From NCBI GenBank assembly GCA_002862545.1, contig PKDJ01000181.1, positions 115 through 64,114 of the forward strand: a stretch of DNA of 64,000 nt, read 5' to 3'. Both the position numbers and the translations under genes were made by a program. Positions 10,002 through 53,491 of the stretch are shown piece by piece (positions within the stretch are counted from its first letter, which is position 1; each line of letters starts with the position of its first letter). The notes below the pieces were generated by a model. It saw nothing but the letters and a program-made list of their open reading frames with translations. It was not told the DNA's origin and did no database searches. This DNA is from Pseudomonadota bacterium. Its GTDB lineage: Bacteria > Myxococcota_A > UBA796 > GCA-2862545.

Positions 10002-10160
10002 GACCTGGGATGCAGAGGGTCTGTGGTTCGTGCTCCTCAACGGAGCCTGAAGTGCACCGCAAGACCTGCCCGGAAGCGACGCCGCCTAGGTCGAAAAAGA
10101 CCCTGCGCACTCACGGACGAGCCAGCTACGGCTGCGGCGAGGAGAACCGAAGTGGGCCGT

Positions 10161-30096: not shown

Positions 30097-30323
30097 GCAG
30101 CCGTCGTATCGCACGTTGCCGGCGTCGTGCCCTCCGAACGATGCGACAGACATGCTCCAGAGTATTGTGTACATGACACATGATAGTCAGGAGTAGTCAA
30201 GGCCATGCAGGTCTCGCGTAGACTGGCTAGGTCGCCTACAGTCCTGGCGTGTTTCGTCGGTGAGTCACGCTCGCCGCTGCGTCGGGGCTTGTTGAGGGAT
30301 TGCTTGCTGATTGGAGGGCCGCG

Positions 30324-31538
30324 ATGGGTGAGAAAATCGTACTCATCGCCCCTGCGATTCGGCGCTACGACTGGGGCACGCAGGACGTGATCGCCGGCCT
30401 GCTCGGCGCAGCGGACCCCGAGAAGATTGCCGAGGCCTGGTTCGGTGCTCATCCACTCGCTCCGGCTCACGTCGAGGGCTGCGAGACGCCCCTGGATGCC
30501 TGGCTGGGAAGCGAGCAGCTTCCCTACCTGCTCAAGCTCTTGTCCGCCTCGCGGCCGCTGTCGATTCAGGTCCATCCCAACATCGAGCAGGCACGCGCAG
30601 GGTTCGCACGTGAGGAGGCCCTCGGCGTGCCTCGAGCCGCGCGCAATCGCAGCTATCGCGACGCATCGGACAAGCCCGAGCTGATGCTGGCCCTCACACC
30701 CTTCGAGGCGCTCGTGGGACTGCGGCCGCTGCCCGAGGTCGTGGCGCTGCTTGCAGGCCTCGGGGAGCTTCGAGCGCTGGCGCCGCAGCCCGAGGCCGAG
30801 CCCGCTGCGGTCCGGGCCTGGCTCGGTCGCTGGCTGTCTGCGAGGGAGGAGGAGCGGCGGACCATCCTCGCGGCGGTCGCGGATGCGCTCGACGCGCTCC
30901 CTGTTCCCGAGGCCAACCGCGACCTCTTTCGCGAGCTGCGTCTGACGGCGCACGACGCCGATCCCGGCCTGTTATTCGTGCTGCTGATGCGTCGGCTTGT
31001 CCTACAGCCTGGTGAGGCGATCTTCCTGCCGGCCGGGTGCGTCCATGCCTACGTGCGAGGGACGGGCATCGAGGTCATGGCCAGCTCCGACAACGTCGTG
31101 AGAGCTGGACTGACCAGCAAGCACATCGACACGGCGGAGTTCCTTCGGATCGCTGACCTCGAGAGTCCTGTGCCCGCCATTCTCCCCGGTCGTTCCACGG
31201 TCGATGGTCGAGAGCGCCTCTACGACACTCCTGCGCGTGCCTTCGAACTGTCCGTGCTCACGTTGACGTCGGGTCAGGGCATCGCGCGCCGCGCTTCCAG
31301 TCGAGAGACGCTGCTGAACATTGGAGAAGGCACGATCATTGGGCGGGGCGACGGCGGTGAGGTTCGGCTCGGCCGAGGTCAGGCATGTGTCGTGCCCGCA
31401 GGGGTCGAGCTGCGCTTGACAGCCGATCGCGACGCCACGTGCGTTCGGGTCACGGTTCCGTCTTCCCACGGGTCGTTCAGGTCAATATCGGCCGGCCAAG
31501 TTGACCAACCGGGGTCACTCGATGGAGCAGCCGCGTGA
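30324..31538 (+). CDS. manA: Mannose-6-phosphate isomerase, class I
   Basis: Start ATG 30324. YDWGT, AEAWFGAHP, LPYLLKLLSA..PLSIQVHPN, DKPELMLALTPFEAL and VHAYVRGTGIEVMASSDNVVRAGLTSKHID are the classic type-I PMI motifs. Confidence 0.9.
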   Translation: MGEKIVLIAPAIRRYDWGTQDVIAGLLGAADPEKIAEAWFGAHPLAPAHVEGCETPLDAWLGSEQLPYLLKLLSASRPLSIQVHPNIEQARAGFAREEALGVPRAARNRSYRDASDKPELMLALTPFEALVGLRPLPEVVALLAGLGELRALAPQPEAEPAAVRAWLGRWLSAREEERRTILAAVADALDALPVPEANRDLFRELRLTAHDADPGLLFVLLMRRLVLQPGEAIFLPAGCVHAYVRGTGIEVMASSDNVVRAGLTSKHIDTAEFLRIADLESPVPAILPGRSTVDGRERLYDTPARAFELSVLTLTSGQGIARRASSRETLLNIGEGTIIGRGDGGEVRLGRGQACVVPAGVELRLTADRDATCVRVTVPSSHGSFRSISAGQVDQPGSLDGAAA

Positions 31539-32710
31539 CGACCAACCGAAGCACGATCCCGGGAGTGGTCTTCTTCATGTCGTGGAGAGACATCAAGCAC
31601 CCGCGACACGGCGGCGCCGAGGTCTACACGCATCAGGTGTGCGAGCGCCTCGTGCGCAACGGCCTCACGGTCTGGCACTTCTCCGCCTCGTTCGAGGGCA
31701 GTGCCCGTGAGGAGATCATCGACGGTGTGCGCTACATCCGGCGCGGGAATCCGATCTCGGTGATCCCTCGCGCGATTCGGTTCTACCGCAAGCACCGTGA
31801 CCAGATCTCGCTCGTGGTCGAGCAGTGCAACACCCATCGGTTCTTTGGCCCGCTGTGGGCGCCGCCCGAGCGCCGCATCTTCTTCGTCCACCACCTCACC
31901 CGCACCCAGTGGTTCGAGCTGTGGCCGGCGGCACCGGCGGCGGCTGGCTACGCCGTCGAGGTCTTCGCCCTGTGGCTGAACAGGAAGGACCACACCATCA
32001 CGCCGTCTCCCTCGACGCGAAAGGACCTCGAGCGCATCCGCTACCGGCGCGTCATGGAGACGCCGCAGGGGATCGACATCGCGATCCGCGACCCGAGTGA
32101 GTTCGCGGAGAAGGAACCCGAGACCTTCATCTATGCGGGACGGGTGAACCCCTACAAGGGGGTACATCACGTGATCGAAGCGGTCGGCATGCTTCGCCGC
32201 AAGCGGCCCGGGGCGCGACTCTGGGTAGTCGGGCGCTACACCGACGAGACCTTCCACGAGTACCTCGAGCCAGCGATGGCGGCGCATGGACTCGACGCCA
32301 CCTTCGGCGAAGACGATGGCGGCGGGGCGGTGCACTTCTTCGGGTTCGTGTCCACGGAGCAGATGCACGACCTGATGGGGCGTGCCGTGGCTCTGCTGAT
32401 GGCCTCCTCCAGGGAGGGCTGGGGGTTGACCATCACCGAGTGCGCGGCCCTGGGAACACCCAGCATCGTGTGGCCGGCTCCGGGTGTGGTCGACGCCGTC
32501 GACTTCGGCCGTGCGGGCTACCTGTGCACGGCGCGCACCCTGCCGTGCATGGTCGCGGGAATGGAGCGTGCTCTCGACGACGCCGAGAGCTACGCGCGGG
32601 TGCGCAAGGCGGCGCACGAGTACTCGAAGGGCTTCACGCCCGATCGAGCCGCCGAGGCCTTTCAGTCGTGCTTGGAGCGGGTGTGGGAGAACGCATGCGC
32701 ATCGCAGTAG
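31535..32710 (+). CDS. Glycosyltransferase family 4 (GT-B)
   Basis: GTG start overlaps the manA stop (GTGA). GGAEVYTHQVCERLVRNG N-domain and the EX7E-type C-domain SSREGWGLTITECAALGTPSIV. Confidence 0.85.
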   Translation: MTTNRSTIPGVVFFMSWRDIKHPRHGGAEVYTHQVCERLVRNGLTVWHFSASFEGSAREEIIDGVRYIRRGNPISVIPRAIRFYRKHRDQISLVVEQCNTHRFFGPLWAPPERRIFFVHHLTRTQWFELWPAAPAAAGYAVEVFALWLNRKDHTITPSPSTRKDLERIRYRRVMETPQGIDIAIRDPSEFAEKEPETFIYAGRVNPYKGVHHVIEAVGMLRRKRPGARLWVVGRYTDETFHEYLEPAMAAHGLDATFGEDDGGGAVHFFGFVSTEQMHDLMGRAVALLMASSREGWGLTITECAALGTPSIVWPAPGVVDAVDFGRAGYLCTARTLPCMVAGMERALDDAESYARVRKAAHEYSKGFTPDRAAEAFQSCLERVWENACASQ

Positions 32711-33582
32711 CCATGAGCACCTTCAACGATGTCGACCGCACCTGCAGGGCGATCGACAGCGCGCTCCAGCAGGACATCGATGCCACCATCGAGGTCGTGG
32801 TCGCCGACGATGGCTCCGAGCAGGACGCGGTCGATGCTCTCGTCGCGGCCTACGGCGAGCATCCGCACGTGCATCTGCTCCTGTTGCCCCACCGTGAGCG
32901 GGGCTGGGCGCGACACAGTGCGATGGAGAAGGTCCTCGCACTCGAGCCGGACTACCTGCTCTTCATCGATGCCGACATGGTGCTTGACCTGTCGGCACTG
33001 TCCGTGTGTGTCGACACCGCGAACAGAGAGAGTGCGGGTGCCGTTGTTCTGCGAGAGCGCCCCTTCTCCTCGTCCACGAACTACGCGACGCGGGTGAAGG
33101 TCTTCGAGCGCATGGTGATCAACAACGCGGGTGCTCAGATGGGATCCGACGCCATCGATGCCGCCCGCTTCTGGACCTTGCAGGCCTACGAGGAGAGCGG
33201 TGGCCTCGACCCTCACGAGATCAGCTTCGAGGAGATCCAGCCCACCATCCGGTACAGGCGCCGAGGAGGCAGGGTGGTCCGGGCCGAGGGCCTGTTGCTC
33301 TCCCACGACGAGAAGCACGTGACCTGGGAGAACCTGTTCGGAAAGAAGTCCGAGTACTTCGCGGCGATGCACACCACGGCGTCCCGCGAGGAGCAAGGGG
33401 TCCTCGACATGGTGCGCCGCTGGTATCCCTTCCGGCGGGTGTACTACGAGCGGGCCAACCTGCGGGCCTACCGTGACAATCCTTCTCTCGCAGCGGGCAT
33501 GGTCGCCATGTACGGCGGACTCACTGCGCTCGCGGTGTCCAACCTGCTGCGGGAGCAGCTGCGCGAGCGGCGGGCGGGTTGA
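32695..33582 (+). CDS. Glycosyltransferase family 2 (GT-A)
   Basis: ATG 32695 overlaps the GT4 end by 16 nt. IAVAMSTFNDVDRTCRAIDSALQQ..IEVVVADDGS and LLFIDADMV (DxD) motifs. Hydrophobic C-terminal segment. Confidence 0.8.
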   Translation: MRIAVAMSTFNDVDRTCRAIDSALQQDIDATIEVVVADDGSEQDAVDALVAAYGEHPHVHLLLLPHRERGWARHSAMEKVLALEPDYLLFIDADMVLDLSALSVCVDTANRESAGAVVLRERPFSSSTNYATRVKVFERMVINNAGAQMGSDAIDAARFWTLQAYEESGGLDPHEISFEEIQPTIRYRRRGGRVVRAEGLLLSHDEKHVTWENLFGKKSEYFAAMHTTASREEQGVLDMVRRWYPFRRVYYERANLRAYRDNPSLAAGMVAMYGGLTALAVSNLLREQLRERRAG

Positions 33583-36500
33583 GTCTTCGGCTCGGAGCGC
33601 TGCTGCTCGCCACCTCGCTGTGGATGTGTGGCACAGAGGCGCAAGCGGCGGAGCGGCAGGACGCCATCGAGGCCTTCACGCGCGGTGACTGCGACGCCGC
33701 GCTGCGTGGATTCAAGGATATTTTCGAGGATCAAAGAACGTTCTCGAGCGGCCTCGATCTGGCGTACCACTACCGGGTGTGCCGCCAGCTCCCCAGCGCC
33801 AAGGAGGTGCTGGCGAGCATGCAGGAGGTCTGGCCCGAGCGCTACGAGCTCGCTCTCGAGCGGGCCCGGGTGGCTGAGGCGCTCGGCGACCGACGGTCCG
33901 CCATTCGGATCCTCAAGTCGGCGCCGGGTGATGCGGCTCGTCATCCGCAGGTCCTCGAGGCGCTGGCGGCGGTGCAGCTCCGGGCCGGCGATCCGTCGGG
34001 AACCATCGGGACGCTTCGAGGCGGAAGCGCCGTCCTGTTGTCGAGCAAGGCCTTGGCCTACCACTCGATGATGGCGGCTGCGCTCACCGAGCTTGGCCGT
34101 CATGCCGAGGCCGTCGACCACTGGCGAGAGGTGAGCTCGGCCCAGCCGCGTGATGCCACCGCCATCCGCAGTCTGGCAAAGGCGCTGGGCGCCTCCGGAG
34201 AAGCCGACGCGGCCATCTCCGTGCTGTCCGACGCCCTGGCTCGCCTCGGCGATCAGGGATCGCTCTGGCTCGATCTCGGCTTCCTGTACCTGGAGCAGGG
34301 AGCCATGGGCGATGCGGTTGAGGCGTTCGATAACGCAGAGGTGGCTTTTGTCGCGGCGGGGGACGAGGAGGGTGCGCAGGCGGTCGCAGAGTCACGTGTC
34401 CTCTCTCTGCGGGTGATCGCCAACGAGGCGCTCGCCGCAGGCGACATCGAGAGGGCGATCCGTACCCTCCAAGGAATCGCAGATCGGGATGCGTCAGTGG
34501 ACCTCTCGCTAGCGTATATGCACCGCCTCTCTGGCCAGTTCGATCGTGCGGGCGCCATCCTCGCGGGCCTACAGCCGACTGAAGACCTGGCCGTTCCTGT
34601 CGCTATGGAGAGAGCGGCGCTGTTCTCGGACCAAGGGGAACACGCCGCAGCCATCGCAGTGCTGGAGCCGGTGGTCGCGACGCTGCCCGCGGACACTCCG
34701 GCAGCGGCTCTCGCGCTCGGCTCACTGTACGTCAGGGCTCAGCTCGGGGAGACGCTGCTTGGCTTCGTCGCAGGGCTGGAGGCGAGAGGCTTCGATCTCC
34801 AGACGCCGGGCTTCCGAGCACTCGTGGCCGAGGGGCACACGCTGCTGGAGCAGCATGCACAGGCCGCCGAGGCCTGGCGCAGCTACGTCGCCATGTCGCC
34901 TGAGCTGCTGGATGGCTACCTCGCGCTGTCCCGCTCGCTGTTGGCGGCGGATGACACTGGGGAGGCCAGAGCGACCCTGGAGCTGGCTGCGCAGCGTCTG
35001 GCCGCGGAGGGCAGGCTGTCGATGGCTCGGGCGGGGCTCGCCCTCGATGTCGGTGACTTCACCACCGCCGAGGGCTTCTACCGCAGCGCGAAGCAGCAGT
35101 ATGTGGCCGAGGAGAACTCACAGGCTGCCGAGCTCGCCCAGCAGCAGGTTGCGCTGTCGATCTCGCTGCGCGCCGAGGGACTCGTGACTGCGCTGAATCA
35201 TGAGGGTGCCGTCGAGGCCTACGCGCTGGCCTACCTGGAGAGTCCGAGCGGGCCTGCGGCCCTGCGCTACGCGTACGCGCTCGAGCTTGTGGGTCGCCTC
35301 GGCGATGCCGAGGAGGTCTACGTCGAGGGCCTCGAGCGATTCCCGACGTACTTGGAGCTCGCGCTCGGCTTTGTCGATCTGCTGCTGCTGCAGCAGCGCC
35401 AGCAAGAAGCGCTGGGCATCCTGGAGAGGCACTCCACCGAGACGGTGAGTGTCTCGCGGCGGCTCGCACAGGTCTACCTGGGCCTCGGTCGCTTCGAGGA
35501 CGCCATTCGGATCGCAGAGTCGACGCGCAGCGCGGTCATCTTGAGTGACCTGCTGGCGGTAGAGGCCACGGCCTACCTCGGGCTCCGCGAGCGGGAGCGC
35601 GTCCTCGAGGTCTGGCGCCGCGCGATCCGAGAGATCCCGGACGACCTGCCGCTGCGGCTCGAGCTCGTCTACGCCCTTGGGCGTCGCCAGCAGTACGCGT
35701 CTGCTGAGGAGGTCCTCGCTCGGGCCGAGGCGGACCTGCCGGCTGACGGACGCACGGCGCTGGCGCGGGCCTGGCTCTGGCTGTCTCGCGGGGTGCCGAG
35801 CCGTCGTCGGGTGTGGGCGAGGGTGGCCGCTCGGCAGCTCGAGGCCTCTCCGCCGCCTGCAGAGATCTTCGCGCACTACCTGACGCTCGCGCGGGCGTAC
35901 ACCTACGCAGACGAGCCAGTGCTCGCTCTCGACGCCATCGAGCGGGCGGCGACAGATCCGCTGGCGCGGCGCAGGCCGCTCGAGCAGAAGGGCTGGCTCG
36001 CGGTCTGGGAGAAAGACCAGTGGTCTGCCATGGAGACGTTCGAGTACCTGCACGCCCTCGAGCCACTCAACCCGACGCCGCTGATCTCGATGTACCAAGT
36101 GGCGGTCAGCCAACATGCGCACGGTCTGGGAGTTGCGCTCGAGAAACGGGCGCTGGAGTCTTCGGGGGGCCGAGAGACCGCAGTGAGTCAGCTGCACGAT
36201 CTGGGTGTGCGCACTTACGGCTACCGTCCTTTGCCTTGGCTCGGGGTGGCCCTCGATGGAAGCCATGGGATCGGTCGCGCCTCTGCGATCGAGCTTCGTC
36301 GGGCTACCTTGCTCGGGAGCGCGTTCCAGGCGTATCAGGTGCGAAGCAGCGCGCTCGACGTTCGATCGGCTGGCTATGTCCAAGGCCTTCCTGCCATAGA
36401 GCTTGGGTACGGGCTGGTGTCACAGCGTCAGGATGTCGAGTCCGAGAGCCACGTCGTGCGGCTGGCGATCAATGATGGTGCGCCGACGAGCCTCGGGACC

Positions 36501-37178
36501 ATCCTGTGGGGCGTCGACATCTCAGCGGGGGTGTTCGACAGCCGACTGGCCGGCGCCTCGGTTCAGCTGCTCGACTCGGAGTCGGTGTCCCTCGGTCTCA
36601 TGCCACGCCACACCGCACACACGGTGACGATGCGGGCCATGCGTGGCCGCCAAGTCGGTAACGCTGTGTTGCCGGATCAGCGCTACTGGCGGGCCGAGGT
36701 CGAGGACATCGTGCAGCTCGCCCATGTGCGCGGCGCTGTGCGACTGCGTCAGAGCTGGGTGAACTTGCCGGATGACATGCGGGTCAACTCGACCAGCCTG
36801 GACGGCTCGGTCGTTCCGGCTATCATGGGCATCGTCATGGGCGGACCCGTCGTTGGTGTGGAGCGGGACGTAGTGGACGACTCGGCTGCTCTGGTGACCA
36901 GACTAGGAGGAGAGCTGACGTCTGGAGTCAGGCTGCGCAATGTGACGCCCGGACTGTTGGTGCAGCACGAGGCGGTGGTTGGTAGTCCCCAGTACAGTCG
37001 CCTGACTCTCGATGCCGGCCTGAAGGTCACCCTCGAAGCAGCCCTTCGAACCCACCGAGCGGGCAGGCTGCATGTGGCGAAGTCGCCGCTGCTCTTCAAC
37101 CTTGGGGCGCGGTTCGTCGACTACAAGGACGAGGCGCTGCGGGACTCCGTCACCCTCTCATTGGGACTGGAGCTGTGA
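33579..37178 (+). CDS. Large TPR-repeat protein with putative C-terminal outer-membrane beta-barrel (BcsC/PgaA/PelB-like architecture)
   Basis: 1199 aa. The TTG start overlaps the GT2 stop (TTGA). Signal LGALLLATSLWMCGTEAQA. About 800 aa of TPR-like helical repeats follow, then ~380 aa with alternating beta-strand-like pattern (..VRLAINDG..VSLGLMP..VTLSLGLEL). The barrel is inferred, not demonstrated. Confidence 0.7.
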   Translation: MSLRLGALLLATSLWMCGTEAQAAERQDAIEAFTRGDCDAALRGFKDIFEDQRTFSSGLDLAYHYRVCRQLPSAKEVLASMQEVWPERYELALERARVAEALGDRRSAIRILKSAPGDAARHPQVLEALAAVQLRAGDPSGTIGTLRGGSAVLLSSKALAYHSMMAAALTELGRHAEAVDHWREVSSAQPRDATAIRSLAKALGASGEADAAISVLSDALARLGDQGSLWLDLGFLYLEQGAMGDAVEAFDNAEVAFVAAGDEEGAQAVAESRVLSLRVIANEALAAGDIERAIRTLQGIADRDASVDLSLAYMHRLSGQFDRAGAILAGLQPTEDLAVPVAMERAALFSDQGEHAAAIAVLEPVVATLPADTPAAALALGSLYVRAQLGETLLGFVAGLEARGFDLQTPGFRALVAEGHTLLEQHAQAAEAWRSYVAMSPELLDGYLALSRSLLAADDTGEARATLELAAQRLAAEGRLSMARAGLALDVGDFTTAEGFYRSAKQQYVAEENSQAAELAQQQVALSISLRAEGLVTALNHEGAVEAYALAYLESPSGPAALRYAYALELVGRLGDAEEVYVEGLERFPTYLELALGFVDLLLLQQRQQEALGILERHSTETVSVSRRLAQVYLGLGRFEDAIRIAESTRSAVILSDLLAVEATAYLGLRERERVLEVWRRAIREIPDDLPLRLELVYALGRRQQYASAEEVLARAEADLPADGRTALARAWLWLSRGVPSRRRVWARVAARQLEASPPPAEIFAHYLTLARAYTYADEPVLALDAIERAATDPLARRRPLEQKGWLAVWEKDQWSAMETFEYLHALEPLNPTPLISMYQVAVSQHAHGLGVALEKRALESSGGRETAVSQLHDLGVRTYGYRPLPWLGVALDGSHGIGRASAIELRRATLLGSAFQAYQVRSSALDVRSAGYVQGLPAIELGYGLVSQRQDVESESHVVRLAINDGAPTSLGTILWGVDISAGVFDSRLAGASVQLLDSESVSLGLMPRHTAHTVTMRAMRGRQVGNAVLPDQRYWRAEVEDIVQLAHVRGAVRLRQSWVNLPDDMRVNSTSLDGSVVPAIMGIVMGGPVVGVERDVVDDSAALVTRLGGELTSGVRLRNVTPGLLVQHEAVVGSPQYSRLTLDAGLKVTLEAALRTHRAGRLHVAKSPLLFNLGARFVDYKDEALRDSVTLSLGLEL

Positions 37179-38413
37179 GCCCGCTGTCGCACGCACGGGG
37201 CTGGCTTCTGAGGCGGCAAGAGGTCCTGTACCCTGCCCTCGATGGCGTCAGCTTCGTGCTGCTCTACGTCTACCTGGTGCTGGCGGGCAACTGGGTGGAT
37301 GCGTCGGCCTTTGGTCAGCTCAACAGCTTGACCGCACTGCTGACTTTTCTTGCTGCGGCGGGTGCGGCCATCCAGTTCATCGTGGCCCGGCGCCTGGCCC
37401 GCGATGTCTCGACACCGCTCGGTGATCTCTGGGTGCTGGACGCGGCGCTCACCCTCCCGCTCGTGCTGCCCTTCCTGCTGCCGCTGCCTGAGGCGTGGCG
37501 TCTGTCAGCCGTGGACACGGTCGGGCCGGTCAGCTTCGCTGCGCTGGTGCTCGTGGCTGCGCAGATTGGTGTGTTCCGAGGTGTCCTTCAGGGGCGCCAG
37601 CGCTTCTTTGCGCTGTGGGCGAGCCAGCTCGCGGGCCATGTCGCGCGGCTCGCTGTGTTGGTCGCCGTGGCAGCCGGAGGGGCGACCCTCGCGACGGTCT
37701 GGTGGTCCGTGATCGCTGCTGAGGTTGCGCACTTGGTGGCCGTGGTCATTGCCTGTCAGTCGGCTGGCGGGGACCTGTGGACGAGGATTCGGCCGATCCC
37801 GGTGCGCCGGGATGTGGTGGTCGACGTGCTGCGGGTCTGCGCAGCCCAGCTCGCCGTGGCGGGCTTGCTCTCCGTCGACCTGATCTTGGCGGGAGAGAAC
37901 CTCGGTGCCGAGAGTGGAGCCTTCGCGACGGCGAATCGATTCGGTCGCGTGTTCTGCTTCCTCAGTGCGAGCGTGGCCGTGGTCCTCCTACCCCGCTTTG
38001 CGCGTCAGCAGTCCGCGGGACGTGGCCTCGGCACGCTGACGCTCGGAGCTGCGGCGGTCAGCGTGCCCGTGTCGCTGGTGGGCGCGGTCGTGCTGGTGCC
38101 GCTCATGCGCTGGATGTTTCCTGATGCAGTCGTCCCGAGCACCGCGCTCACGGTCTGGGAGCTCGGGGCCAACCTTGGCCTCGCCGTGATTCAGGTCTTG
38201 GTGACCTGGCATGTTGCCCAGTCCAGACGCTGGTACGCGGTCATCGTGGGGCTGGCCGGGGTGGTCTTGGTCGCTGCTCTACAGCTCGGACCCGCCACAC
38301 CGCTGTACTATGCTCAGGCCAGCCTGGTGGTCTTCTGGATGACCGCACTCGTCCTCTCTCGCGCCGACGTGACGACCGACACCGTGGAGTCCGAGGCCAT
38401 CGACGCCCCATGA
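37175..38413 (+). CDS. Polytopic membrane protein, MOP/Wzx-type oligosaccharide flippase-like
   Basis: 412 aa. The GTG start overlaps the upstream stop (GTGA). About 12 predicted TM helices with the size and composition of polysaccharide-biosynthesis (Wzx/MurJ superfamily) proteins. No diagnostic motif. Confidence 0.6.
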   Translation: MSPLSHARGWLLRRQEVLYPALDGVSFVLLYVYLVLAGNWVDASAFGQLNSLTALLTFLAAAGAAIQFIVARRLARDVSTPLGDLWVLDAALTLPLVLPFLLPLPEAWRLSAVDTVGPVSFAALVLVAAQIGVFRGVLQGRQRFFALWASQLAGHVARLAVLVAVAAGGATLATVWWSVIAAEVAHLVAVVIACQSAGGDLWTRIRPIPVRRDVVVDVLRVCAAQLAVAGLLSVDLILAGENLGAESGAFATANRFGRVFCFLSASVAVVLLPRFARQQSAGRGLGTLTLGAAAVSVPVSLVGAVVLVPLMRWMFPDAVVPSTALTVWELGANLGLAVIQVLVTWHVAQSRRWYAVIVGLAGVVLVAALQLGPATPLYYAQASLVVFWMTALVLSRADVTTDTVESEAIDAP

Positions 38414-41400
38414 ACGCCCACCGGCGCGCCCGACTGCCGCTCTCTGTCGACCTCGCTACTGCGGCGGTGGTCGGCTTGGCCATCGCGCCCATGCTGTTCG
38501 GGGGCACGGTCACCTTCACGGACCTCACCTTCGGGCGGACGACCGACCGCGTCCTCGACAGCGTGGGCAGTGTGTTCAATGCGCACCTGAGCACGGCGAA
38601 CTGGTTCAACCTCCCGCGCTTGCCCTTTGTGGCGGTCGCCAAGGTCTTTGCCGACATCTTCGCGGGAGGCGACGCGAGTGTCTTTCTGTGGGCCATGACC
38701 ACAGTCACCCTCACGCTCGGCGCCTGGGGCGTGATGCGGCTCGCTCACGATGTGGCCGCTGCGCGGCCGGGACGCACCCTCAGTCCTGCCATTCTCGTGC
38801 TCGTTGGACTGGTCTATGCGCTGAATCCCTGGTCAATTCAGCGCATTCAGCACATCTACCTGCTCTGTGGGTATGCCCTCTACCCCTGGGTCTGGTGGCT
38901 CGCGCTGCGCTCCTGGGGCCCACAGACCTGGCGACGAGCGGGTGGCTTCGTCGTGCGGCCTCGGGCGGACGACCTGGTCTACATGATGGGTCTGGGTGCC
39001 GCTGTCGCGGTCAGCTTCGCCGGGGTGCACTTCGGATTCTTGAGTGGACTCACGCTGGTTCCGGTGGGTCTCGGCTGCGCGGTGTGGGCGCTGACCGATG
39101 CGGTCAAGCAGAGGACCATCGGCCGCTGGCTCGCCTTCTTTGCCGTTCGTGCTGCAGTGCCGGCAGTCTCTTTCGGCGCGTTCGCCGCCTACTGGAGCTG
39201 GCCGCTCGTGTCAGGCATCCTCAACCAGGTGCGACCCAGCCAGTTCAACGTCAACGCCTACGAGAACATCATCCTCTTCAGTCGCTACAGCGACCTGACG
39301 AGCGTGCTCTCGGCGTCGAGCTACTGGTGGCCCATGGTACCCCTCGAGACCTTCGGGGAGGCCAGCGGCCCGGCGGCGATCCTGCTGTGGTCGCTCGCGC
39401 TGATCGGTGTGGCTCGACTGCGAGAGCTGCCGCTGGCGGTACCGGTTGGCGGACTGGTCGTGCTGGCCACGGGAGCCCACTACCCTGCGCTGGCGGAGAA
39501 CTACCTCGGGCTGGTCTTCGAGCTGCCCTATCCACTCGGCGACATGCTGCGCGATCCCAACAAGATCGTGGGCGTCTTGCTGCTGGCGCTCTGCCTGATG
39601 CTGGCACGGGGGCTGTCGCGAATCGACGACGGCGGATGGGCGGGGCGTCTGCTTGGCCCGGTGCTGGGCGTAGCGGCCTGGCTCGTGTGGGTCCTTCCCT
39701 TCTGGCGTGTCTACATGCTGGGATTCTACCTTCCGGTCGACTGGCCGGCCCAGCAGATCGCGCTCTCCGAGCACCTGCGCTCCCTCCCGACCGAGGCGCG
39801 GGTGCTCTACCTACCGCTGGCCAACGAGGTCATCGATCCGAGCCTGGGCTTCAGCTCTCCAGACTTCAACACCGTGACAGTCGAGGGGCGTGAGATCGCC
39901 AAGGCGACGGCTGACTTTGCGATCGTCGACAGCCCACGCGACACGGTCTTTCCCTACGAGGGCAACCCCATCTCGGTAGAGCGGATGCTGGTCTATCTGC
40001 ACGAGGTCCTCGAGCGCGGCGATGTCGAGGCCTTCGGTGACCTCGCTCGGGCGCTTGGCGTCACCCACGTGGTCCACCGGAGCAGCTATGCGAGCCATCG
40101 GGATCGCCTGCTTCGAGAGCAAGAACTCCTCTCGCGGCAGCCAGATCTCACCGAGACCTGGTCGTCCGGCGACATCCGGGTGTACACCGTCGAAGACGCG
40201 GAGACGACTGCACGGGTGCTGCAGCGTGTGGTCTACACGACGGCTGACCAGGAGCACCTCACGACGCTCCGGCGGCTGCTCGGCTGGCGCGCGTCCGAGA
40301 CCGGGCATGTCTTTGCTGCCCAGTCTTCAGGCACGACGATGTCCGTCCTTGGGCCGGGGGACTGGGTCGATGTCTCGTCCCGCCATGCTCTCCTGCTGGC
40401 TCAGGTCCCCAGCGACCAGCTCGTCGCGCCTGCCGATCACATGAGCGAGGGCCGCCCCTCTGTGGGGTGGGCGAAGGGGTACCTGCAGGGCCCGGATCTG
40501 GAGTGGCAGCTCGAGCTTGCCGGGGCTGGAGACGCCGTGATTGGCGCTGATCTGTCGATGCCACAGGTCTTCACCTCCAGCGCGCGCCGCTTGATCATGC
40601 CCTCGTGGGAGGAGGCTTCGGCGCTTCGCGTGCCGTTGATCGACGAGTCGGCCTGGCAGGATGTCGAAGGGGTCCCCACCGCGGAGGTGCTCGACGTCGA
40701 GCCGCTCATGCTCGAGGTGAATGGTGTGCGCATGCGCTGGTCGACCACGGAGACCGAGGGTCAGGCGGGTCGTCAGTGGTCCGTGGTCTCGCAGTCCTTT
40801 CCCCTCGCGGGTGGTCGTGCCCATGCCCTGCAGGTTGAGGTCGAGGGCGCTGTGGAGCCTGGGGTCGTCGTGCGGGTGGTCTGCATGGACGAAGAGGGCA
40901 GGACGCTCGGCAGTCAGGTACTCGCGCTGGTGCACGATCCGGGCGGGCGGGGGACCGTCCACAGGTCCTTCATCACGCCGACCTGGGCGACGCAGGCCCG
41001 GGTCGAGCTGATCGGTCCGGGTGATGCACCGAGTCTGGGCTGGTCTGTGAAGGACCTCTCTCTCGGGCAGTACGTCGATGGGGATGCGCCGAATCTTCTG
41101 ACTGTGCCCATGGACGTCCCCTCTGGCTCGGGAGCGCTCTGGGTGCGGGCACTCTGCTCTCGCGGTGGAGGAGTGCTTCGCGTTGCTATCGGCGCGACGA
41201 GCACGACCCTGGACACACGCTGTCCGGCGTCTCCACGCCTGAAGTGGTTTCGCGCGGAGGGCCTTCAGGGGCCTGCGGACAGACTGTCGATCAGCAACGA
41301 GGGGGGCTTCAACAGCGTCAATGCGCTCACCTGGATGACGCCCGAGGATGAAGCCGCGCTGGAAGAGGGCCTCGCTGCGGGGCTCGAGGACAAGCGCCTG

Positions 41401-42540
41401 CTGGCGATTCGGGACCTCTGGGAGGATGGCGAGTGGTCGGGTGCGCTTCGGAGTGGCCGTGCCGATCCCCGCTGGACAGCTGGGCGAACCCTGCGATCCG
41501 TGAGAGGCGAGGCCACCGTCTCGCTCTGGGTACCGCGAGACGGGGTGTATGACCTCGTGGTCAACGACGAGGTGCCGCCAGGCGGGGAGTACGGGCTGGA
41601 GGTGGTCGATCCGTCCGGTGCCCGTGTGTTCGAGACCGTCGTCGCGCATGATGGCGCGGAGGGGGTGCGGCAGCTCGAGAGGCTCTCGCTGGAGCGCGGG
41701 ACCTACACGGTGAGCGCTCGCTTTAGGGCGGATCCCGAGGGCACGTTGAGCTGGGACGCGCTCTCGTCGCCGGGAACGCGATGGTTCGTCCGGACCAGCC
41801 CCGAGCAGAGGCGCATTCGGCGCATGGCGGGCAGCAGCACGGAGACCCAGGCAGTCCTCTTGACGCCCGAGGTGCCGGTCATGCCTGGCGAGCAGGTCCT
41901 CGTTGGCTTTCGCTACCACCTGCACGGAGGGCGAGATCTACACGCCCGTTTTCGCTTTCTCGATGCGTCTGGGCACAACATCGCGACGCGGGTCGACCGC
42001 TTCCCCAGGCGCTGGTCCGCGCACTCGGATCGCGTCGCAACCGTGGTCGAGCCACCACCAGGAGCGACGGCGCTCGTCACGGAGCTCGCATTCTCACCTG
42101 GAGAGGCGACTGACCGGGATTCCTACCTCGATGTCTTCGACTTCGAGCTGTGGACTGAGGAACGTGGGATTGCGCTCGACAGCGTGGTCCTGATCCAGGC
42201 CGATCGTTCGGCCGCTGCTGACGCCTCCCGGGTCGAGGTCGTCGAGAGTGAGGGCGGGACGCGTCGCCTGCGAGTGCAGGGAGGTGAGGGCCGGCTGCTC
42301 GAGCTGCTGGAGACTCCCAACCGGCTGTGGACAGCGAGCGAAGACGGTGCAGCACGGCCGACCTTGTCGGTCCGTGGAACCTCGGTCGGGATTCGGCTGG
42401 AGGAGGATGACGCCGGTGTGGTGTTCACGGTTCCTTACGACGCCATCCATCGGCGTGGCGTCTGGGTCAGCAACATCAGCGCCCTCGGTCTCTTTGGGCT
42501 CTGGGGTGTCACGCTGTGGCGGCGTCGTCAGAGCAGGTAG
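38410..42540 (+). CDS. Giant membrane protein with GT-C-like N-terminal polytopic domain, large periplasmic jelly-roll/CBM-like region and C-terminal TM anchor (AftD/DUF3367-like architecture)
   Basis: 1376 aa. The ATG overlaps the flippase stop (ATGA). About 12-14 TM helices in the first ~480 aa. A soluble module follows containing ..LGVTHVVHRSSY.., and two beta-sandwich-like segments (e.g. VVRVVCMDEEGRTLGSQV..ARVELIGPG and VGFRYHLHGGRDLHARFRFLDASGHN..). Final TM VWVSNISALGLFGLWGVTLWRRR. Confidence 0.7.
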   Translation: MNAHRRARLPLSVDLATAAVVGLAIAPMLFGGTVTFTDLTFGRTTDRVLDSVGSVFNAHLSTANWFNLPRLPFVAVAKVFADIFAGGDASVFLWAMTTVTLTLGAWGVMRLAHDVAAARPGRTLSPAILVLVGLVYALNPWSIQRIQHIYLLCGYALYPWVWWLALRSWGPQTWRRAGGFVVRPRADDLVYMMGLGAAVAVSFAGVHFGFLSGLTLVPVGLGCAVWALTDAVKQRTIGRWLAFFAVRAAVPAVSFGAFAAYWSWPLVSGILNQVRPSQFNVNAYENIILFSRYSDLTSVLSASSYWWPMVPLETFGEASGPAAILLWSLALIGVARLRELPLAVPVGGLVVLATGAHYPALAENYLGLVFELPYPLGDMLRDPNKIVGVLLLALCLMLARGLSRIDDGGWAGRLLGPVLGVAAWLVWVLPFWRVYMLGFYLPVDWPAQQIALSEHLRSLPTEARVLYLPLANEVIDPSLGFSSPDFNTVTVEGREIAKATADFAIVDSPRDTVFPYEGNPISVERMLVYLHEVLERGDVEAFGDLARALGVTHVVHRSSYASHRDRLLREQELLSRQPDLTETWSSGDIRVYTVEDAETTARVLQRVVYTTADQEHLTTLRRLLGWRASETGHVFAAQSSGTTMSVLGPGDWVDVSSRHALLLAQVPSDQLVAPADHMSEGRPSVGWAKGYLQGPDLEWQLELAGAGDAVIGADLSMPQVFTSSARRLIMPSWEEASALRVPLIDESAWQDVEGVPTAEVLDVEPLMLEVNGVRMRWSTTETEGQAGRQWSVVSQSFPLAGGRAHALQVEVEGAVEPGVVVRVVCMDEEGRTLGSQVLALVHDPGGRGTVHRSFITPTWATQARVELIGPGDAPSLGWSVKDLSLGQYVDGDAPNLLTVPMDVPSGSGALWVRALCSRGGGVLRVAIGATSTTLDTRCPASPRLKWFRAEGLQGPADRLSISNEGGFNSVNALTWMTPEDEAALEEGLAAGLEDKRLLAIRDLWEDGEWSGALRSGRADPRWTAGRTLRSVRGEATVSLWVPRDGVYDLVVNDEVPPGGEYGLEVVDPSGARVFETVVAHDGAEGVRQLERLSLERGTYTVSARFRADPEGTLSWDALSSPGTRWFVRTSPEQRRIRRMAGSSTETQAVLLTPEVPVMPGEQVLVGFRYHLHGGRDLHARFRFLDASGHNIATRVDRFPRRWSAHSDRVATVVEPPPGATALVTELAFSPGEATDRDSYLDVFDFELWTEERGIALDSVVLIQADRSAAADASRVEVVESEGGTRRLRVQGGEGRLLELLETPNRLWTASEDGAARPTLSVRGTSVGIRLEEDDAGVVFTVPYDAIHRRGVWVSNISALGLFGLWGVTLWRRRQSR

Positions 42541-43796
42541 TCCCCGTCCTCGAACTCCCCGAGCAGTACGTTTCCGTCCACGAAGGTGGAGACGTTGCCG
42601 CTGTCGGCCTCGGCGCGCACGGCATGAGAGGCCAGGCCGGACACGTTGGCCAGGGTGTTCGACTCGATGGCCGTCTCGATGACCTCCTCCTGGAGGAACA
42701 CGGCGGCGATCCCATCGCAGGACCACTCGAACGCGGACGACAGCGCGGCGCACAGGGCGCTGTCCTGGATGGTGTTGTCGGTGATGAGGGAGCGGTCGCT
42801 CCGCAGCAGGTAGACGCCGTCGTAGAAGCTGCTGTCGATCAGGTTCCCCTGCACCGTCAGGTCCGAGGCGCCGTCGACCTCGATGCCGAACAGGCCACTG
42901 TTGACCACCACGTTGTCGAGCAGGGCCAGGCCGGGGCTGCGTGTGGTCACGTCGACCGGGTGGATGTCCTGTGGGCCGATCCGAATGCCGCTCGCGGCGC
43001 TGTCACGGATGGTGTTGCGCTCAACCGTCAGGTCGAAGCTCGGCAGGTTGATGGTCAGCCCGGGACCCGGTGCATCGGCGATCCAGTTGTCGATGACCGT
43101 GCTGTCGCGGCAGAGGAAGATGTTCAAGGTGCCGTCGATGACGTTGTCTTCGACGAGGCCCTCTTGCTGGCCGGCGAACACCATCGCGTCGCCGGCATGG
43201 CCGGACTGGATCTCGTTGCGTGCGATCACGTTGTTGGTGTTCAGAGCGCTGGTAGCGGTCAGATCGTCCAGGGTCCCGGCCGTGTGCTCGGGGCCTGCCG
43301 CGTAGACGGCCCACCGCTTGGTCGAGCCCAGGAAGCGGCTGTCCGTGACCACGGTATCGTCGACATCACCGAGGACGAGGGCGGCTTGAGCCTTGGCGGT
43401 CATGGCATCGATCGTGACGCCGGACAGGTGTGCACCGTCGGCGTAGATCCGCAGGCCGTCCGCGTTGGGATCGGCTTGGACGAGCACGACAGCGTCGGCA
43501 TCCTCGCCGACCATCCACACATCCTCCTCCGTGATGGTGAGAGGACCGTCGAGAACGTACTCTCCGGCGAGAATCTGGATGCGTCGCTCACCGGCGTCCA
43601 GGGCTTCCTCCGGGTGGAGGTAGTCGCCAGAGCCAGCCGCATCCACGATGACCCAGTCTAGGTCGCTGTCGGGCGGCTCCAGGGCAGACGGGGCGAGGCG
43701 GAGCCCCTCGTCAAGAGCCGTGGTGGCCTCATCCATCGTCGCGCAGCCCGTGATGAGCAGGGCGGCGAGCCAGCCATAGAGATGGACAGAGTTCAC
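42528..43796 (-). CDS. Lipoprotein with right-handed parallel beta-helix repeats (pectate-lyase/NosD/AlgG-like fold)
   Basis: 422 aa. Lipobox LLITGC. Repeated N/D-rich beta-helix rungs (NVIARNEIQSG.., VEDNVIDGT.., VIDNWIAD.., VERNTIRDS.., LLDNVVVNS.., VQGNLIDSS.., ITDNTIQDS..). Its 3' end overlaps the convergent giant gene by 13 nt. Confidence 0.8.
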   Translation of the reverse strand: MNSVHLYGWLAALLITGCATMDEATTALDEGLRLAPSALEPPDSDLDWVIVDAAGSGDYLHPEEALDAGERRIQILAGEYVLDGPLTITEEDVWMVGEDADAVVLVQADPNADGLRIYADGAHLSGVTIDAMTAKAQAALVLGDVDDTVVTDSRFLGSTKRWAVYAAGPEHTAGTLDDLTATSALNTNNVIARNEIQSGHAGDAMVFAGQQEGLVEDNVIDGTLNIFLCRDSTVIDNWIADAPGPGLTINLPSFDLTVERNTIRDSAASGIRIGPQDIHPVDVTTRSPGLALLDNVVVNSGLFGIEVDGASDLTVQGNLIDSSFYDGVYLLRSDRSLITDNTIQDSALCAALSSAFEWSCDGIAAVFLQEEVIETAIESNTLANVSGLASHAVRAEADSGNVSTFVDGNVLLGEFEDGDYLL

Positions 43797-43931
43797 GAGT
43801 CGCTCCTGGTTCTGGGTTCCAGAAGCAACGTGGTGCCAACACCCCCTGACTAGGCTGTCGGTCTTCTCGCTCAGACGGCGAAGCGGCAGGCCTGACGTGT
43901 ACCATCGGACTAAGGGAGTGCACCCCCCGGA

Positions 43932-44711
43932 GTGATGATGAACCCCGAGCGACCCGACCTATACACGGAAGACCGCCTCAAGGAGTGGGAGCGGATGGAT
44001 GGTGGCGATGGGGGCTTTCCCTTTCATCGTCAGCGCGTGGCTTTGGAGGCCCTCAAGGGCCTCGATGTCCGCTCGGATGCAGCGTTCGTCGACCTCGGCA
44101 GCGGCGATGGCCAGTTCGCGGCTGCCGTGAAGGAGCAGAGTCCAGGATGGTCGATCTCGCTCATCGACGGCTCGGAGGCGCAGCTCGCACGCGCGGCCAA
44201 GGTCTGCGTCGGGGCCAGCTGCGTTCAGGCCGATCTGAACCAGCCTCTACCGCTGGGCGACGATTCCATCGACGTGGTCCACGCCGGCGAGCTCATCGAG
44301 CACCTCTACAGCCCAGATGCCTTCCTGCGGGAGTGCCGGCGCGTCCTTCGCCCCGACGGGCACCTCGTGGTGACCACGCCGAACCTCTGCGCTTGGTACA
44401 ACCGGGTGTTGTTTCCCCTCGGTGTGTTGCCGATCTTCTACGAAATCTCGGCCGAGAGCACACAGTACGGCGTCGGCTTCCTTCGTGGGCTCAAGCAGAG
44501 TGACCAGCCGGTGGGGCACATTCGCGTGATGAACCACTCGGGCTTGGTCGAGATCCTGGAGGCCAATGGGTTCGACGTGGTGGACATGCGCACCGCGGTG
44601 TTCGACGTGAAGGCGCCGCTGCTCTTTCGGGTCGTCGATCGAGCGCTGCTCGGTGCTCCGAGCTTGGCCTCGAACTTCATCGCGGTCGCTCGCCCTCGGG
44701 GCAAGAGCTAG
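43932..44711 (+). CDS. Class I SAM-dependent methyltransferase
   Basis: 259 aa. SAM-binding motif I FVDLGSGDGQF and IDVVHAGELIEHL (methyltransferase type 11-like). Confidence 0.8.
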   Translation: MMMNPERPDLYTEDRLKEWERMDGGDGGFPFHRQRVALEALKGLDVRSDAAFVDLGSGDGQFAAAVKEQSPGWSISLIDGSEAQLARAAKVCVGASCVQADLNQPLPLGDDSIDVVHAGELIEHLYSPDAFLRECRRVLRPDGHLVVTTPNLCAWYNRVLFPLGVLPIFYEISAESTQYGVGFLRGLKQSDQPVGHIRVMNHSGLVEILEANGFDVVDMRTAVFDVKAPLLFRVVDRALLGAPSLASNFIAVARPRGKS

Positions 44712-44771
44712 CGTCCCTGCTCGCTGCGCCCTCGAGGCACTGTCGCGCGGGGTACGGCGCGACAGCTCGAG

Positions 44772-45599
44772 TCAGCCGACCTTCCGCCGCGGCATCGCCA
44801 CGCCCGGCGTGATGACCATGCGGCGCCGATGGGCGGCGAGCGAGTCCAGCAGGTACACGCCGAGGGACCGATTCCGGGCGATCTGAAGCGCGGAGAGGGA
44901 CAGCTGCAGGCCGTCTCGCACAGCGTTCACGGTGGAGGGGTCGTCTGCGAGCCGGTAGCGAACCGGCACAGACTCGATCGTGAAGCCCTGCTCAGCCGCG
45001 ATCACGAGGAGCTCGATGTCGAACGCGAAGCGCGTGACCGTGAGGTACTCGAAGATGTGGACCGCTTCCCGGCGGAAGCCCTTGAGGCCTGCCTGCGTGT
45101 CCTCGACGCAGGTGAGACCCAGGCGTCGAAGCACGTTGTTGAGGATGCGACCGTTGCGCTCGCGGCGGTTGGCCTGATCGAGTGTCGCCGTGCGCACCTC
45201 GGCGACGCTGTTCGTCGCTCGACGGTTGGCGATCACGACGTCGGCTCCGCCGATGAGCCGCTCGAGGAGCGTGTCGATCTCCGTGAGTGGGTACGCGAGG
45301 TCACAGTCCGTGAACACGCAGTACCGCCCGCGGGTCTCGCGCATGCCCTGGCGGACCGCACCACCCTTGCCGACATTTCTCGGCAGCCGGATGAGGGTGA
45401 CCCCGCTCCGGTGCGCGATGAACTCAGCCAAGCGGCTGCCGGTAGCATCGCTGCTGCCGTCGTCGACGATGATCAGCTCGCAGATCTCGGGTCGGTCGTC
45501 GAGGTACTCGAGGACCTCGGCGATGCGGGGGACGATCCACGACTCACAGTTGTAGACGGGCACAACGAGGGACAAGAAGACCCGGGCTTCGCTCAACAT
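44772..45599 (-). CDS. GT2 polyprenol/dolichol-phosphate sugar synthase-like glycosyltransferase (Ppm1/DPM1/ALG5-like)
   Basis: 275 aa. LSLVVPVYNCESWI, LIIVDDGSSDAT, RLPRNVGKGGAVRQGM, VFTDCDLAYP, TQAGLKGFRR and RFAFDIELLVIA..GFTIESVPVRY are collinear with polyprenyl-phosphate glycosyl synthases. Confidence 0.8.
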   Translation of the reverse strand: MLSEARVFLSLVVPVYNCESWIVPRIAEVLEYLDDRPEICELIIVDDGSSDATGSRLAEFIAHRSGVTLIRLPRNVGKGGAVRQGMRETRGRYCVFTDCDLAYPLTEIDTLLERLIGGADVVIANRRATNSVAEVRTATLDQANRRERNGRILNNVLRRLGLTCVEDTQAGLKGFRREAVHIFEYLTVTRFAFDIELLVIAAEQGFTIESVPVRYRLADDPSTVNAVRDGLQLSLSALQIARNRSLGVYLLDSLAAHRRRMVITPGVAMPRRKVG

Positions 45600-53394: not shown

Positions 53395-53491
53395 GGAGAC
53401 TCCGGACGGGCGGAGTGTACTCGCAGAAGGTGCAACAGTCCGAGCGGTGGCGGCGCCTGGTGATAAGGCGGGCGGAGCCGACGGAGCCTGG

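Follow-up and report, generated by a model that had tools for sequence, protein, structure and literature searches.

Gene content and organization of the locus

We analyzed a stretch of 64 kb with about 69% GC (contig PKDJ01000181.1; hereafter the window), and we concentrate on a locus at 30324-45599 that may encode a pathway of extracytoplasmic glycan assembly. Its largest product is a membrane protein of 1376 amino acids, called here the giant, which is predicted to be a glycosyltransferase (GT) of the GT-C fold and is encoded at the end of a six-gene block. The genes of the locus, preceded by one that lies immediately before it, are the following.

28972-30174, minus strand: GH76-like (alpha/alpha)6 glycoside hydrolase (partial match to PF03663), divergent from manA; candidate accessory gene
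30324-31538, plus strand: manA, class I phosphomannose isomerase (PMI; TIGR00218, 184.8 bits against a cutoff of 116.2; PF20511), with a Shine-Dalgarno-like GGAGGG; first gene of the predicted operon
31535-32710, plus strand: GT4 glycosyltransferase (PF00534, PF13439), core member
32695-33582, plus strand: GT2 glycosyltransferase, "GT2a" (PF00535), core member
33579-37178, plus strand: secreted tetratricopeptide repeat (TPR) protein with TPR Pfam matches and a signal-peptide-like N terminus; putative scaffold or exporter, lineage-specific
37175-38413, plus strand: membrane protein of the multidrug/oligosaccharidyl-lipid/polysaccharide (MOP) or Wzx type, putative flippase of lipid-linked sugars (PF01943, E = 6e-4; at least 12 hydrophobic segments), core member
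38410-42540, plus strand: the giant, 1376 amino acids, GT-C glycosyltransferase with AftD-like architecture according to predicted structure and Foldseek
42528-43796, minus strand: right-handed beta-helix lipoprotein (PF13229, NosD/CASH; lipobox ITGC), convergent with the giant
43932-44711, plus strand: S-adenosylmethionine (SAM)-dependent methyltransferase (PF08241), recurrent accessory
44772-45599, minus strand: soluble GT2, "GT2b", polyprenyl-monophosphate-sugar synthase-like (matches in the PDB to GtrB, ArnC and the dolichyl-phosphate-mannose [Dol-P-Man] synthase)

The six plus-strand genes between 30324 and 42540 are linked by start/stop overlaps, as seen in the table of open reading frames (ORFs) and in the junction sequences. 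These are GTGA at 31535-31538 (manA/GT4), an overlap of 16 nt between the GT4 and GT2a genes (ATG at 32695 within the 3' end of the GT4 gene, which stops at 32710), TTGA at 33579-33582 (GT2a/TPR), GTGA at 37175-37178 (TPR/flippase), and ATGA at 38410-38413 (flippase/giant). A preliminary description of this DNA had proposed such a chain, and all five overlaps were reproduced exactly, giving one translationally coupled block. The nine genes of the locus all have the codon bias of a genome with 69% GC (GC content at third codon positions, 0.76-0.88), and Shine-Dalgarno-like GGAG or GGGAG motifs lie 6-12 nt upstream of the starts of manA and of the GT4, GT2a, and flippase genes. The proposed starts, and hence the overlaps, are credible because the alignments with orthologs begin at most 6-17 residues from the proposed N termini. 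The TPR gene has to start at its TTG, since the signal peptide would otherwise be lost. The plus-strand operon ends at 42540, because the stop of the giant gene overlaps by 13 nt that of the convergent beta-helix gene. A consensus scan of 28.5-46.5 kb for promoters and terminators gave results at chance level, and we infer the co-transcription of the six-gene block from the gene architecture. Profile searches agreed with the earlier assignment of the PMI, GT4, GT2, TPR, beta-helix (with its lipobox), SAM methyltransferase, and second GT2 genes, and drew attention to the GH76-like gene, which had been overlooked.

The giant has a predicted AftD-like fold

The giant had no sequence match in Pfam, NCBIfam, or the PDB, either as a single sequence or, against the PDB, as a 30-sequence profile with E values up to 10. 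The PDB chains searched in this way included the AftD entries that were later found by structure. A database search retrieved 73 full-length relatives with 19-32% identity, none of which has a Pfam domain. Where they have a name, it is "hypothetical" or "membrane protein," and this includes the relatives in Paenibacillus polymyxa. Because the sequence searches gave nothing, the assignment of the giant to a family came from structure alone. Using the 73 relatives as the alignment, AlphaFold2 produced a model of residues 1-1200 with a predicted local distance difference test score (pLDDT) of 84.6 and a predicted template modeling score of 0.84. This model has a helical membrane domain at residues 11-457, described as 11-13 helices, an alpha/beta domain at about 464-700, and beta-sandwich domains at about 790-1110. 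A single hydrophobic C-terminal anchor helix, at about residues 1349-1370, follows the soluble region.

When the model was compared with the PDB using Foldseek, the top match was mycobacterial AftD (6wby; E = 2.8e-15, 1411 aligned columns), followed by AglB (3e-5) and PglB (4e-4 and 1e-3), and the C-terminal half matched carbohydrate-binding module (CBM) and jelly-roll domains. GT-C enzymes carry a catalytic Asp in the first outer loop after the first transmembrane helix (TM1). In the giant, D38 (consensus F-S-D) lies directly after TM1 and is conserved in at least 90% of the 73 homologs. The N terminus before TM1 is Arg-rich and positively charged, and thus cytoplasmic, which places the first loop on the extracytoplasmic side. 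The predicted structure confirms the giant as a GT-C enzyme with an AftD-like fold and architecture, as the preliminary description had proposed.

Several features are shared with AftD (PDB 6W98/6WBY). The lengths are alike (1376 amino acids, against a mean of 1381 in the AftD family), as are the N-terminal GT-C domain of about 11-13 helices, the Asp after TM1 (D38 in the giant, D41 in AftD), the soluble alpha/beta domain, the several CBM-like beta-sandwiches, and the C-terminal return to the membrane. However, no sequence similarity between the two is detectable, even with a profile against the PDB, and where AftD has a bundle formed by TM12-16, of which TM13-16 binds an acyl carrier protein, the giant has its single C-terminal helix. 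Hence, the likeness holds for fold and architecture, and not as sequence-level homology or for the C-terminal helix bundle. The distributions also differ, since the PSI-BLAST search in the AftD preprint found only Actinobacteria and none of the 75 loci with the giant family (see below) is actinobacterial. Finally, AftD uses decaprenyl-phosphate-arabinose, whereas the neighbors of the giant point to mannose.

The structural matches raise the question of whether the giant could act on proteins, as an O- or N-oligosaccharyltransferase (OST) or a mannosyltransferase that modifies the S-layer, pilins, or other surface proteins. PglB and AglB are among its matches, and the PMT-type O-mannosylation of proteins uses polyprenyl-phosphate-mannose. 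Yet AftD scores better than the OSTs by about ten orders of magnitude, the modules after the GT-C core are CBM-like and not peptide-binding, and the cassette described below holds no conserved gene for a target protein. We thus consider protein glycosylation very unlikely.

A core cassette conserved across phyla

We scanned GTDB at one genome for each species and obtained 75 loci with relatives of the giant. The proteins of the window were searched against ORFs translated in six frames from these loci, with flanks of up to 10 kb each, and partners were counted in the 54 loci where the giant has 8 kb or more of sequence on either side. The hosts among Bacillota are Exiguobacterium, many Paenibacillus, Brevibacillus, Lysinibacillus, Clostridium, and Peptoclostridium. 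Others belong to Fusobacteriota, Spirochaetota, Margulisiibacteriota, Kosmotogaceae, and Bdellovibrionales, and to metagenome-assembled genomes (MAGs) of Myxococcota and "Proteobacteria," which have the closest relatives of the giant (27-32% identity). Judged by homology, the cassette is present in at least eight phyla, mostly in monoderm Bacillota.

The same partners recur around the giant. A GT4 ortholog was found near it in 50 of the 54 loci, a MOP protein also in 50, a GT2a ortholog in 49, a polyprenyl-phosphate-type GT2 of about 390 amino acids in 48, and all four together in 47. The GT4 and GT2a genes are adjacent and on the same strand in 61/61 loci. Several loci have fused partners without a stop between the parts: the flippase is fused to GT4 in Paenibacillus thiaminolyticus (L051) and Brevibacillus dissolubilis (L063), GT4 to GT2a in a Margulisiibacteriota MAG (L015), and the flippase to the giant in locus L001 (P0002, 1800 amino acids). 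As read from these sequences, the fusions tie flippase, GT4, GT2a, and giant together. On this evidence the core is formed by a polyprenyl-phosphate GT2, a MOP flippase, GT4, GT2a, and the giant, and the window holds a diderm, Myxococcota-like version of it. The preliminary description had seen in the locus a hybrid of parts from different pathways. We reject the idea of a hybrid specific to myxobacteria, because the core partners recur with the giant across loci of several phyla; the five-protein core forms a single conserved cassette, which occurs mainly in monoderm Bacillota and extends to several further phyla.

The Wzx-like MOP protein, the cytoplasmic GT4 and GT2 genes, and the fact that only 64 kb of the genome were seen could point to an ordinary Wzx/Wzy locus for exopolysaccharide (EPS) or O-antigen, with Wzy, the polysaccharide copolymerase, the outer-membrane export protein, and the priming enzyme encoded outside the window. 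The preliminary description had noted that the canonical Wzx/Wzy and synthase parts are missing, and indeed no match to Wzy, Wzc, Wza, a BcsA-like synthase, or an initiating phosphoglycosyltransferase was found in any window ORF supported by codon bias. Nor did homology searches and spot annotations, within at most 10 kb on each side, suggest a conserved Wzy, Wzc, Wza, or phosphoglycosyltransferase in the approximately 75 loci. The invariant partner is a GT-C enzyme, and the flanks of the window carry housekeeping or unrelated genes. Since the window lacks its defining parts and the relatives that were spot-annotated showed none of them, we reject this explanation as extremely improbable.

The related loci have additional features. 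In Bacillota and Fusobacteria, genes for a histidine kinase and a response regulator lie within or adjacent to the cassette (L049, 7003-9932; L016, 16665-17744; L010, 15492-17549; L018, 15586-17490; L007, 19068-19679), which suggests that a two-component system controls its expression there; nothing comparable was seen in the window. A single-pass membrane protein of about 400 amino acids with a coiled-coil C terminus and no Pfam match is encoded directly upstream of the giant in 14 loci (for example at 8689-9909 of L010; the other 13 are from Clostridia, Fusobacteria, and others). The complete cassette of L018 is on the 190-kb plasmid p1 of Cetobacterium sp. SF1 (NZ_CP188320.1). This plasmid copy fits the patchy distribution over several phyla and suggests a horizontal spread of the cassette. 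A second, stand-alone paralog of the giant (L009, 9929-14221; L079, 10001-14284) was found in a Myxococcota MAG that also carries the cassette (L005). It has no GT4, GT2, or flippase gene nearby and adjoins genes for a CheR-TPR methyltransferase and response regulators.

The partner enzymes

In the related loci, the GT4 orthologs score 270-430 bits and those of GT2a 190-340 bits. Searches of the PDB with GT4 and GT2a gave generic GT matches only. The flippase of the window, of 412 amino acids, has a weak match to PF01943 that is below the gathering score, and the same family is matched by 16 of its 23 orthologs, with a best E value of 7e-15. Given its hydrophobic segments and the matches of the orthologs, the protein is therefore of the MOP/Wzx type. 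The earlier call of a flippase, weak in the window protein itself, was thus borne out through the orthologs: the protein is, by its family, MOP-type and not GtrA-type, and its flipping activity is putative.

GT2b had been described as resembling synthases of polyprenyl-phosphate sugars, and its best PDB matches are indeed GtrB (2e-12), ArnC (9e-10), and the Dol-P-Man synthase of Pyrococcus (3e-9). Its best NCBIfam matches are AglJ, Dol-P-hexose transferase, PgfS, and PpgS. All of them are below the curated cutoffs, and they therefore support the type of reaction and not the sugar. In the window, GT2b is encoded 2 kb downstream of the operon and on the opposite strand. Its orthologs head a GT2b-TPR-flippase-giant operon in L001 (236 bits) and L005 (160 bits), which supports that GT2b is a true member of the system, and in L076 this position is taken by an equally sized GT2, as judged by synteny and Pfam only. 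The counterpart in Bacillota, of about 390 amino acids, has its best matches to PpgS, PgfS, ArnC, AglJ, and DPMS. Its co-occurrence with the giant in 48 of the 54 loci is indirect evidence that the giant may use polyprenyl-phosphate-sugar donors. Both GT2a and GT2b are small (275-295 amino acids) and have no multi-helix membrane domain. The polyprenyl-phosphate-type GT2 of monoderms (e.g., L016, 5479-6618; L007, 14680-15915; noted for 48 of the 54 loci) has an extra N-terminal domain of about 130 amino acids, with no Pfam match and no hydrophobic helix.

These enzymes could also be arranged in a linear route like that of the Agl proteins. The polyprenyl-phosphate GT2 would begin by loading a hexose onto undecaprenyl monophosphate, GT4 and GT2a would lengthen the chain in the cytoplasm, perhaps together with the methyltransferase, the MOP protein would flip the resulting undecaprenyl-phosphate-linked oligosaccharide, and the giant would transfer or polymerize it en bloc onto a glycan or a protein. 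The merit of such a route is that each of the conserved genes has its own step in a single linear sequence. It also explains the absence of an initiating phosphoglycosyltransferase and fits the fusions of the flippase to GT4 and to the giant. The NCBIfam matches go in the same direction, with GT2b closest to AglJ/Dol-P-hexose transferase, GT2a weakly similar to AglG, and the GT4 ortholog of L016 weakly similar to Agl16, and AglB and PglB are the next structural matches of the giant after AftD. However, all scores to Agl families are far under the curated cutoffs, and AftD, the closest structural relative, is a monosaccharide transferase with a polyprenyl-monophosphate donor. OST motifs were not identified in the giant, and undecaprenyl-phosphate-linked oligosaccharide donors are not established in bacteria. 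We regard this route as the main alternative, though an unlikely one.

A link to mannose and the accessory genes

The neighbors of the cassette point to mannose. A gene for GDP-mannose pyrophosphorylase (ManC) was found near the giant in 39 of the 54 loci. In the Myxococcota MAG loci L005 and L002, ManC and a phosphomannomutase (PMM) adjoin the GT4-GT2a pair, in L076 a PMM gene has the same position beside this pair, and the Exiguobacterium locus has ManC and a type I PMI. Together with the PMI and the GH76-like gene of the window, these genes strengthen the mannose and polyprenyl-phosphate logic that the preliminary description had drawn from manA and GT2b.

The GH76-like protein exceeds the cutoff of PF03663 (37 bits against 25.9) and covers positions 101-280 of the 366 of the profile. 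It matches alpha-1,6-mannanases of the PDB with E values of about 6e-4, alongside other (alpha/alpha)6 enzymes, and no counterpart was found in the 75 related loci. It may be a hydrolase of the locus that trims the polymer. The methyltransferase and the beta-helix lipoprotein had both been counted among the satellites of the operon. Orthologs of the former clearly adjoin the giant only in L066 and L075 (163-167 bits), and the match beside GT4 in L001 is weak (28 bits) and truncated at the end of the contig. The beta-helix gene is not a conserved partner, since a homolog was found near the cassette only in L025, one of the 54 loci with full flanks. Its fold makes the product a probable glycan-modifying or glycan-cleaving accessory.

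The TPR protein of the Myxococcota-like loci

The TPR protein has a signal-peptide-like N terminus, multiple TPR matches in Pfam at residues of about 60-650, and a C-terminal domain of about 320 amino acids that is non-helical and has no long hydrophobic helix. It was found only in the window and in Myxococcota-like MAGs and metagenome contigs, with one further locus being the only addition from a metagenome scan. In all seven of these loci (the window, L001, L002, L005, L076, L080, and L081), its gene is directly upstream of the flippase and giant genes. The protein resembles the BcsC, PgaA, PelB, and AlgK-AlgE exporters in that it is secreted, carries a long TPR array in its N-terminal part, and is encoded in a polysaccharide operon, and the TPR region has weak NCBIfam matches to PgaA and PrsT. 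It differs from them in that its C-terminal domain matches no barrel family, and the window differs from synthase-dependent systems in having no membrane synthase of the BcsA, PgaC, or Alg8 type as partner.

The preliminary description had seen in the C-terminal domain a putative beta-barrel, the one of its calls that the following results did not confirm. A word-indexed search with the window sequence returned no homologs, a three-sequence profile found TPR proteins only, and when 1.84 billion representative proteins were searched exhaustively with phmmer, only the protein itself came back. None of the five homologs scanned has a Pfam match in this domain, and a profile search of the PDB found TPR proteins only. 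The AlphaFold2 model of the domain, made from the single sequence, has a pLDDT of 30.7. Its alternating hydrophobicity is not above that of shuffled sequences, and its periodicity leans to beta over helix. The predicted secretion, the beta-leaning C-terminal domain, and the restriction to a diderm lineage are compatible with a role of the TPR protein in the outer membrane or in the periplasm.

A model of glycan assembly by the cassette

The donors of GT-C enzymes, which work on the outer side of the membrane, are sugars linked to polyprenyl phosphate and are made by GT2 enzymes of the GtrB/DPM1/Ppm1 type. In the cytoplasm, GDP-mannose is the donor of GT4 enzymes such as PimA. Against this background, we suggest that the cassette directs a GT-C glycan assembly fed by polyprenyl-phosphate-mannose, a reading to which we give slightly better than even credence. 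It starts from what was observed: the gene content, the operon structure, the AftD-like fold, the conservation of the cassette, the fusions, and the link to mannose-nucleotide genes. We infer from these the donor, acceptor, product, and export. GDP-mannose would be supplied with the help of manA here and of ManC, PMM, or PMI elsewhere. At the cytoplasmic face, GT4 and GT2a would build a short lipid-linked primer from nucleotide sugars such as GDP-mannose, GT2b would charge polyprenyl phosphate with mannose, and the MOP protein would carry lipid-linked material across the inner membrane. At the outer face, the giant, by means of the Asp of its first outer loop, would transfer mannose from polyprenyl-phosphate-mannose to the growing glycan, which its CBM-like beta-sandwiches would hold, and the product would be a polymer of the alpha-mannan type. 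In this lineage the secreted TPR protein, whose gene separates those of the cytoplasmic GTs from that of the flippase, would probably lead the polymer across the periplasm or the outer membrane. Modification or trimming of the polymer could fall to the methyltransferase, the beta-helix lipoprotein, and the GH76-like hydrolase.

A pathway of this kind would be a variant of two known logics. The first is that of the widespread three-component systems (GtrB/GtrA/Gtr*; CsbB/GtcA/YfhO; PRTase/MATE/GT136), which likewise combine a synthase-like GT2, a flippase, and a GT-C enzyme. Systems of GT-A, flippase, and GT-C are known in Gram-positives (PMC8035078), and three-component systems with a MATE flippase, i.e., one of the MOP superfamily, and a CBM-bearing GT-C have been described (PMC11127046). 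The GT136 systems thus share with the cassette both the MOP-superfamily flippase and the CBM on the GT-C enzyme. The cassette differs from the three-component systems by its obligatory GT4-GT2 pair, its GDP-mannose genes, a GT-C enzyme two to three times larger, and the fusions.

This comparison raises the possibility that the cassette is such a system, in which GT2b, the flippase, and the GT-C enzyme only attach single mannose residues as branches to the polymer of another pathway (O-antigen, EPS, or teichoic acid), and GT4 and GT2a serve another step. The layout of a synthase, a flippase, and a CBM-bearing GT-C would then be a known one (PMC11127046; PMC8035078), and the cassette indeed conserves no polymerase or export machinery. 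But GT4 and GT2a are locked into it, being adjacent wherever found and accompanied by the other partners in most loci (61/61 and 47/54, as above), and GT4 is fused to the flippase in two genera. The cassette is also kept in hosts with unrelated envelope polymers, and the giant has at least three beta-sandwich modules, which, as in AftD, suggest a long and complex acceptor. For these reasons side-chain decoration appears quite improbable to us. The GT4-GT2a pair and the fusions would rather argue that the cassette is self-contained and not an add-on to another polymer locus.

The second logic is that of lipomannan and lipoarabinomannan (LM/LAM) synthesis in mycobacteria and corynebacteria, in which GT-C enzymes depend on the polyprenyl-phosphate-mannose made by Ppm1 (PMC3485146). 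That pathway, with the GT4 enzymes PimA and PimB', Ppm1, and the GT-C enzymes PimE, MptA, and MptB, has the same order of a GT4 acting from GDP-mannose, a polyprenyl-phosphate-mannose made by a GT2, and elongation by a GT-C. The association with a GH76 gene of the alpha-1,6-mannanase type can be likened to it by analogy with the GH76 mannanases. In contrast to the scattered LM/LAM genes, those of the cassette are clustered and translationally coupled. The cassette also differs in the family of its GT-C, in encoding a MOP flippase, in having no gene related to phosphatidylinositol, and in its hosts, which are non-actinobacterial and include diderms.

Several points weigh against the polyprenyl-phosphate-mannose reading. 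The sugar is inferred from neighboring genes only, and 15 of the 54 loci have no ManC within 10 kb. GT2b and the GT2 of Bacillota score below every curated equivalog cutoff, and the GH76 match is partial and confined to this window. No enzyme for the lipid anchor or for priming was identified, and it is not obvious how a single MOP protein would translocate primer and donor alike. The literature, searched by accession and by keyword, gave no description of the giant family. Concerning export, the loci of Fusobacteria, Spirochaetes, and Bdellovibrionota (Bdellovibrionales) have no TPR protein within 10 kb. This step is speculative, because these other diderm carriers are without the TPR protein and its C-terminal domain is without a reliable model.

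Novelty and implications

The kind of system is known, namely, extracytoplasmic glycosylation by GT-C enzymes fed by polyprenyl-phosphate sugars. No annotation or paper was found for the giant family, for an AftD-like architecture outside Actinobacteria, for the five-gene cassette and its fusions, or for the TPR partner of diderms. Giant GT-C enzymes of the AftD type are considered peculiar to Actinobacteria and linked to the cell wall of mycobacteria, and the present family reaches an equivalent architecture with an unrelated sequence that has no Pfam or NCBIfam model. If the proposed mechanism is true, the hosts produce a polymer based on mannose, either secreted or part of the envelope, through a so far unsought route, and the TPR protein is a new candidate component for crossing the periplasm or the outer membrane. 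The fusions, if the function holds, give direct access to the question of how lipid-linked sugars pass from a flippase to a GT-C enzyme. The cassette is found in genetically tractable bacteria, such as Paenibacillus polymyxa, Exiguobacterium, and Clostridium.

One could go further and propose a distinct, self-contained "GT-C polymerase-dependent" class of surface polysaccharide pathways. Here, a short unit containing mannose would be built on undecaprenyl monophosphate by the polyprenyl-phosphate GT2, GT4, and GT2a and flipped by the MOP protein, whether fused or adjacent, and the AftD-like giant would polymerize or transfer it, without Wzy, ABC transporter, or processive synthase; in diderms of this kind, the protein with TPR and beta-leaning domains would be the exporter. 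This would extend the enzymology of AftD from Actinobacteria to at least eight phyla, and we put it forward as a speculative proposal of rather low probability.

Other features of the window

The window contains further genes that may concern the envelope. At 53336-56191 (plus strand), 11 kb downstream, a polytopic membrane protein of 951 amino acids has weak matches to PMT (E = 4e-3) and to the putative GT family LA_3751/3752. It was ruled out as a relative of the giant (hhalign probability, 1.6%) and has no sequence match in the PDB; it may be a second, different GT-C candidate. Upstream, at 24584-27238 (plus strand) and 3 kb from the locus, a protein of 884 amino acids has a sulfatase-superfamily domain at residues 520-798 only, after a long N-terminal region; it may work on envelope glycans as a phosphotransferase or sulfatase anchored in the membrane. 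At 13016-20268 (plus strand), a gene for a bacterial alpha-2-macroglobulin precedes one for a PBP1C-type penicillin-binding protein. This is consistent with a Gram-negative host, because the two are a classic periplasmic defense pair of diderms. Finally, the translation of about 10000-10750 (plus strand) resembles an IS200/REP-associated tyrosine transposase-like domain, with the motif THFHMLI. This stretch has a weaker codon bias and a lower GC content (0.66), and it may be the remnant of a mobile element.

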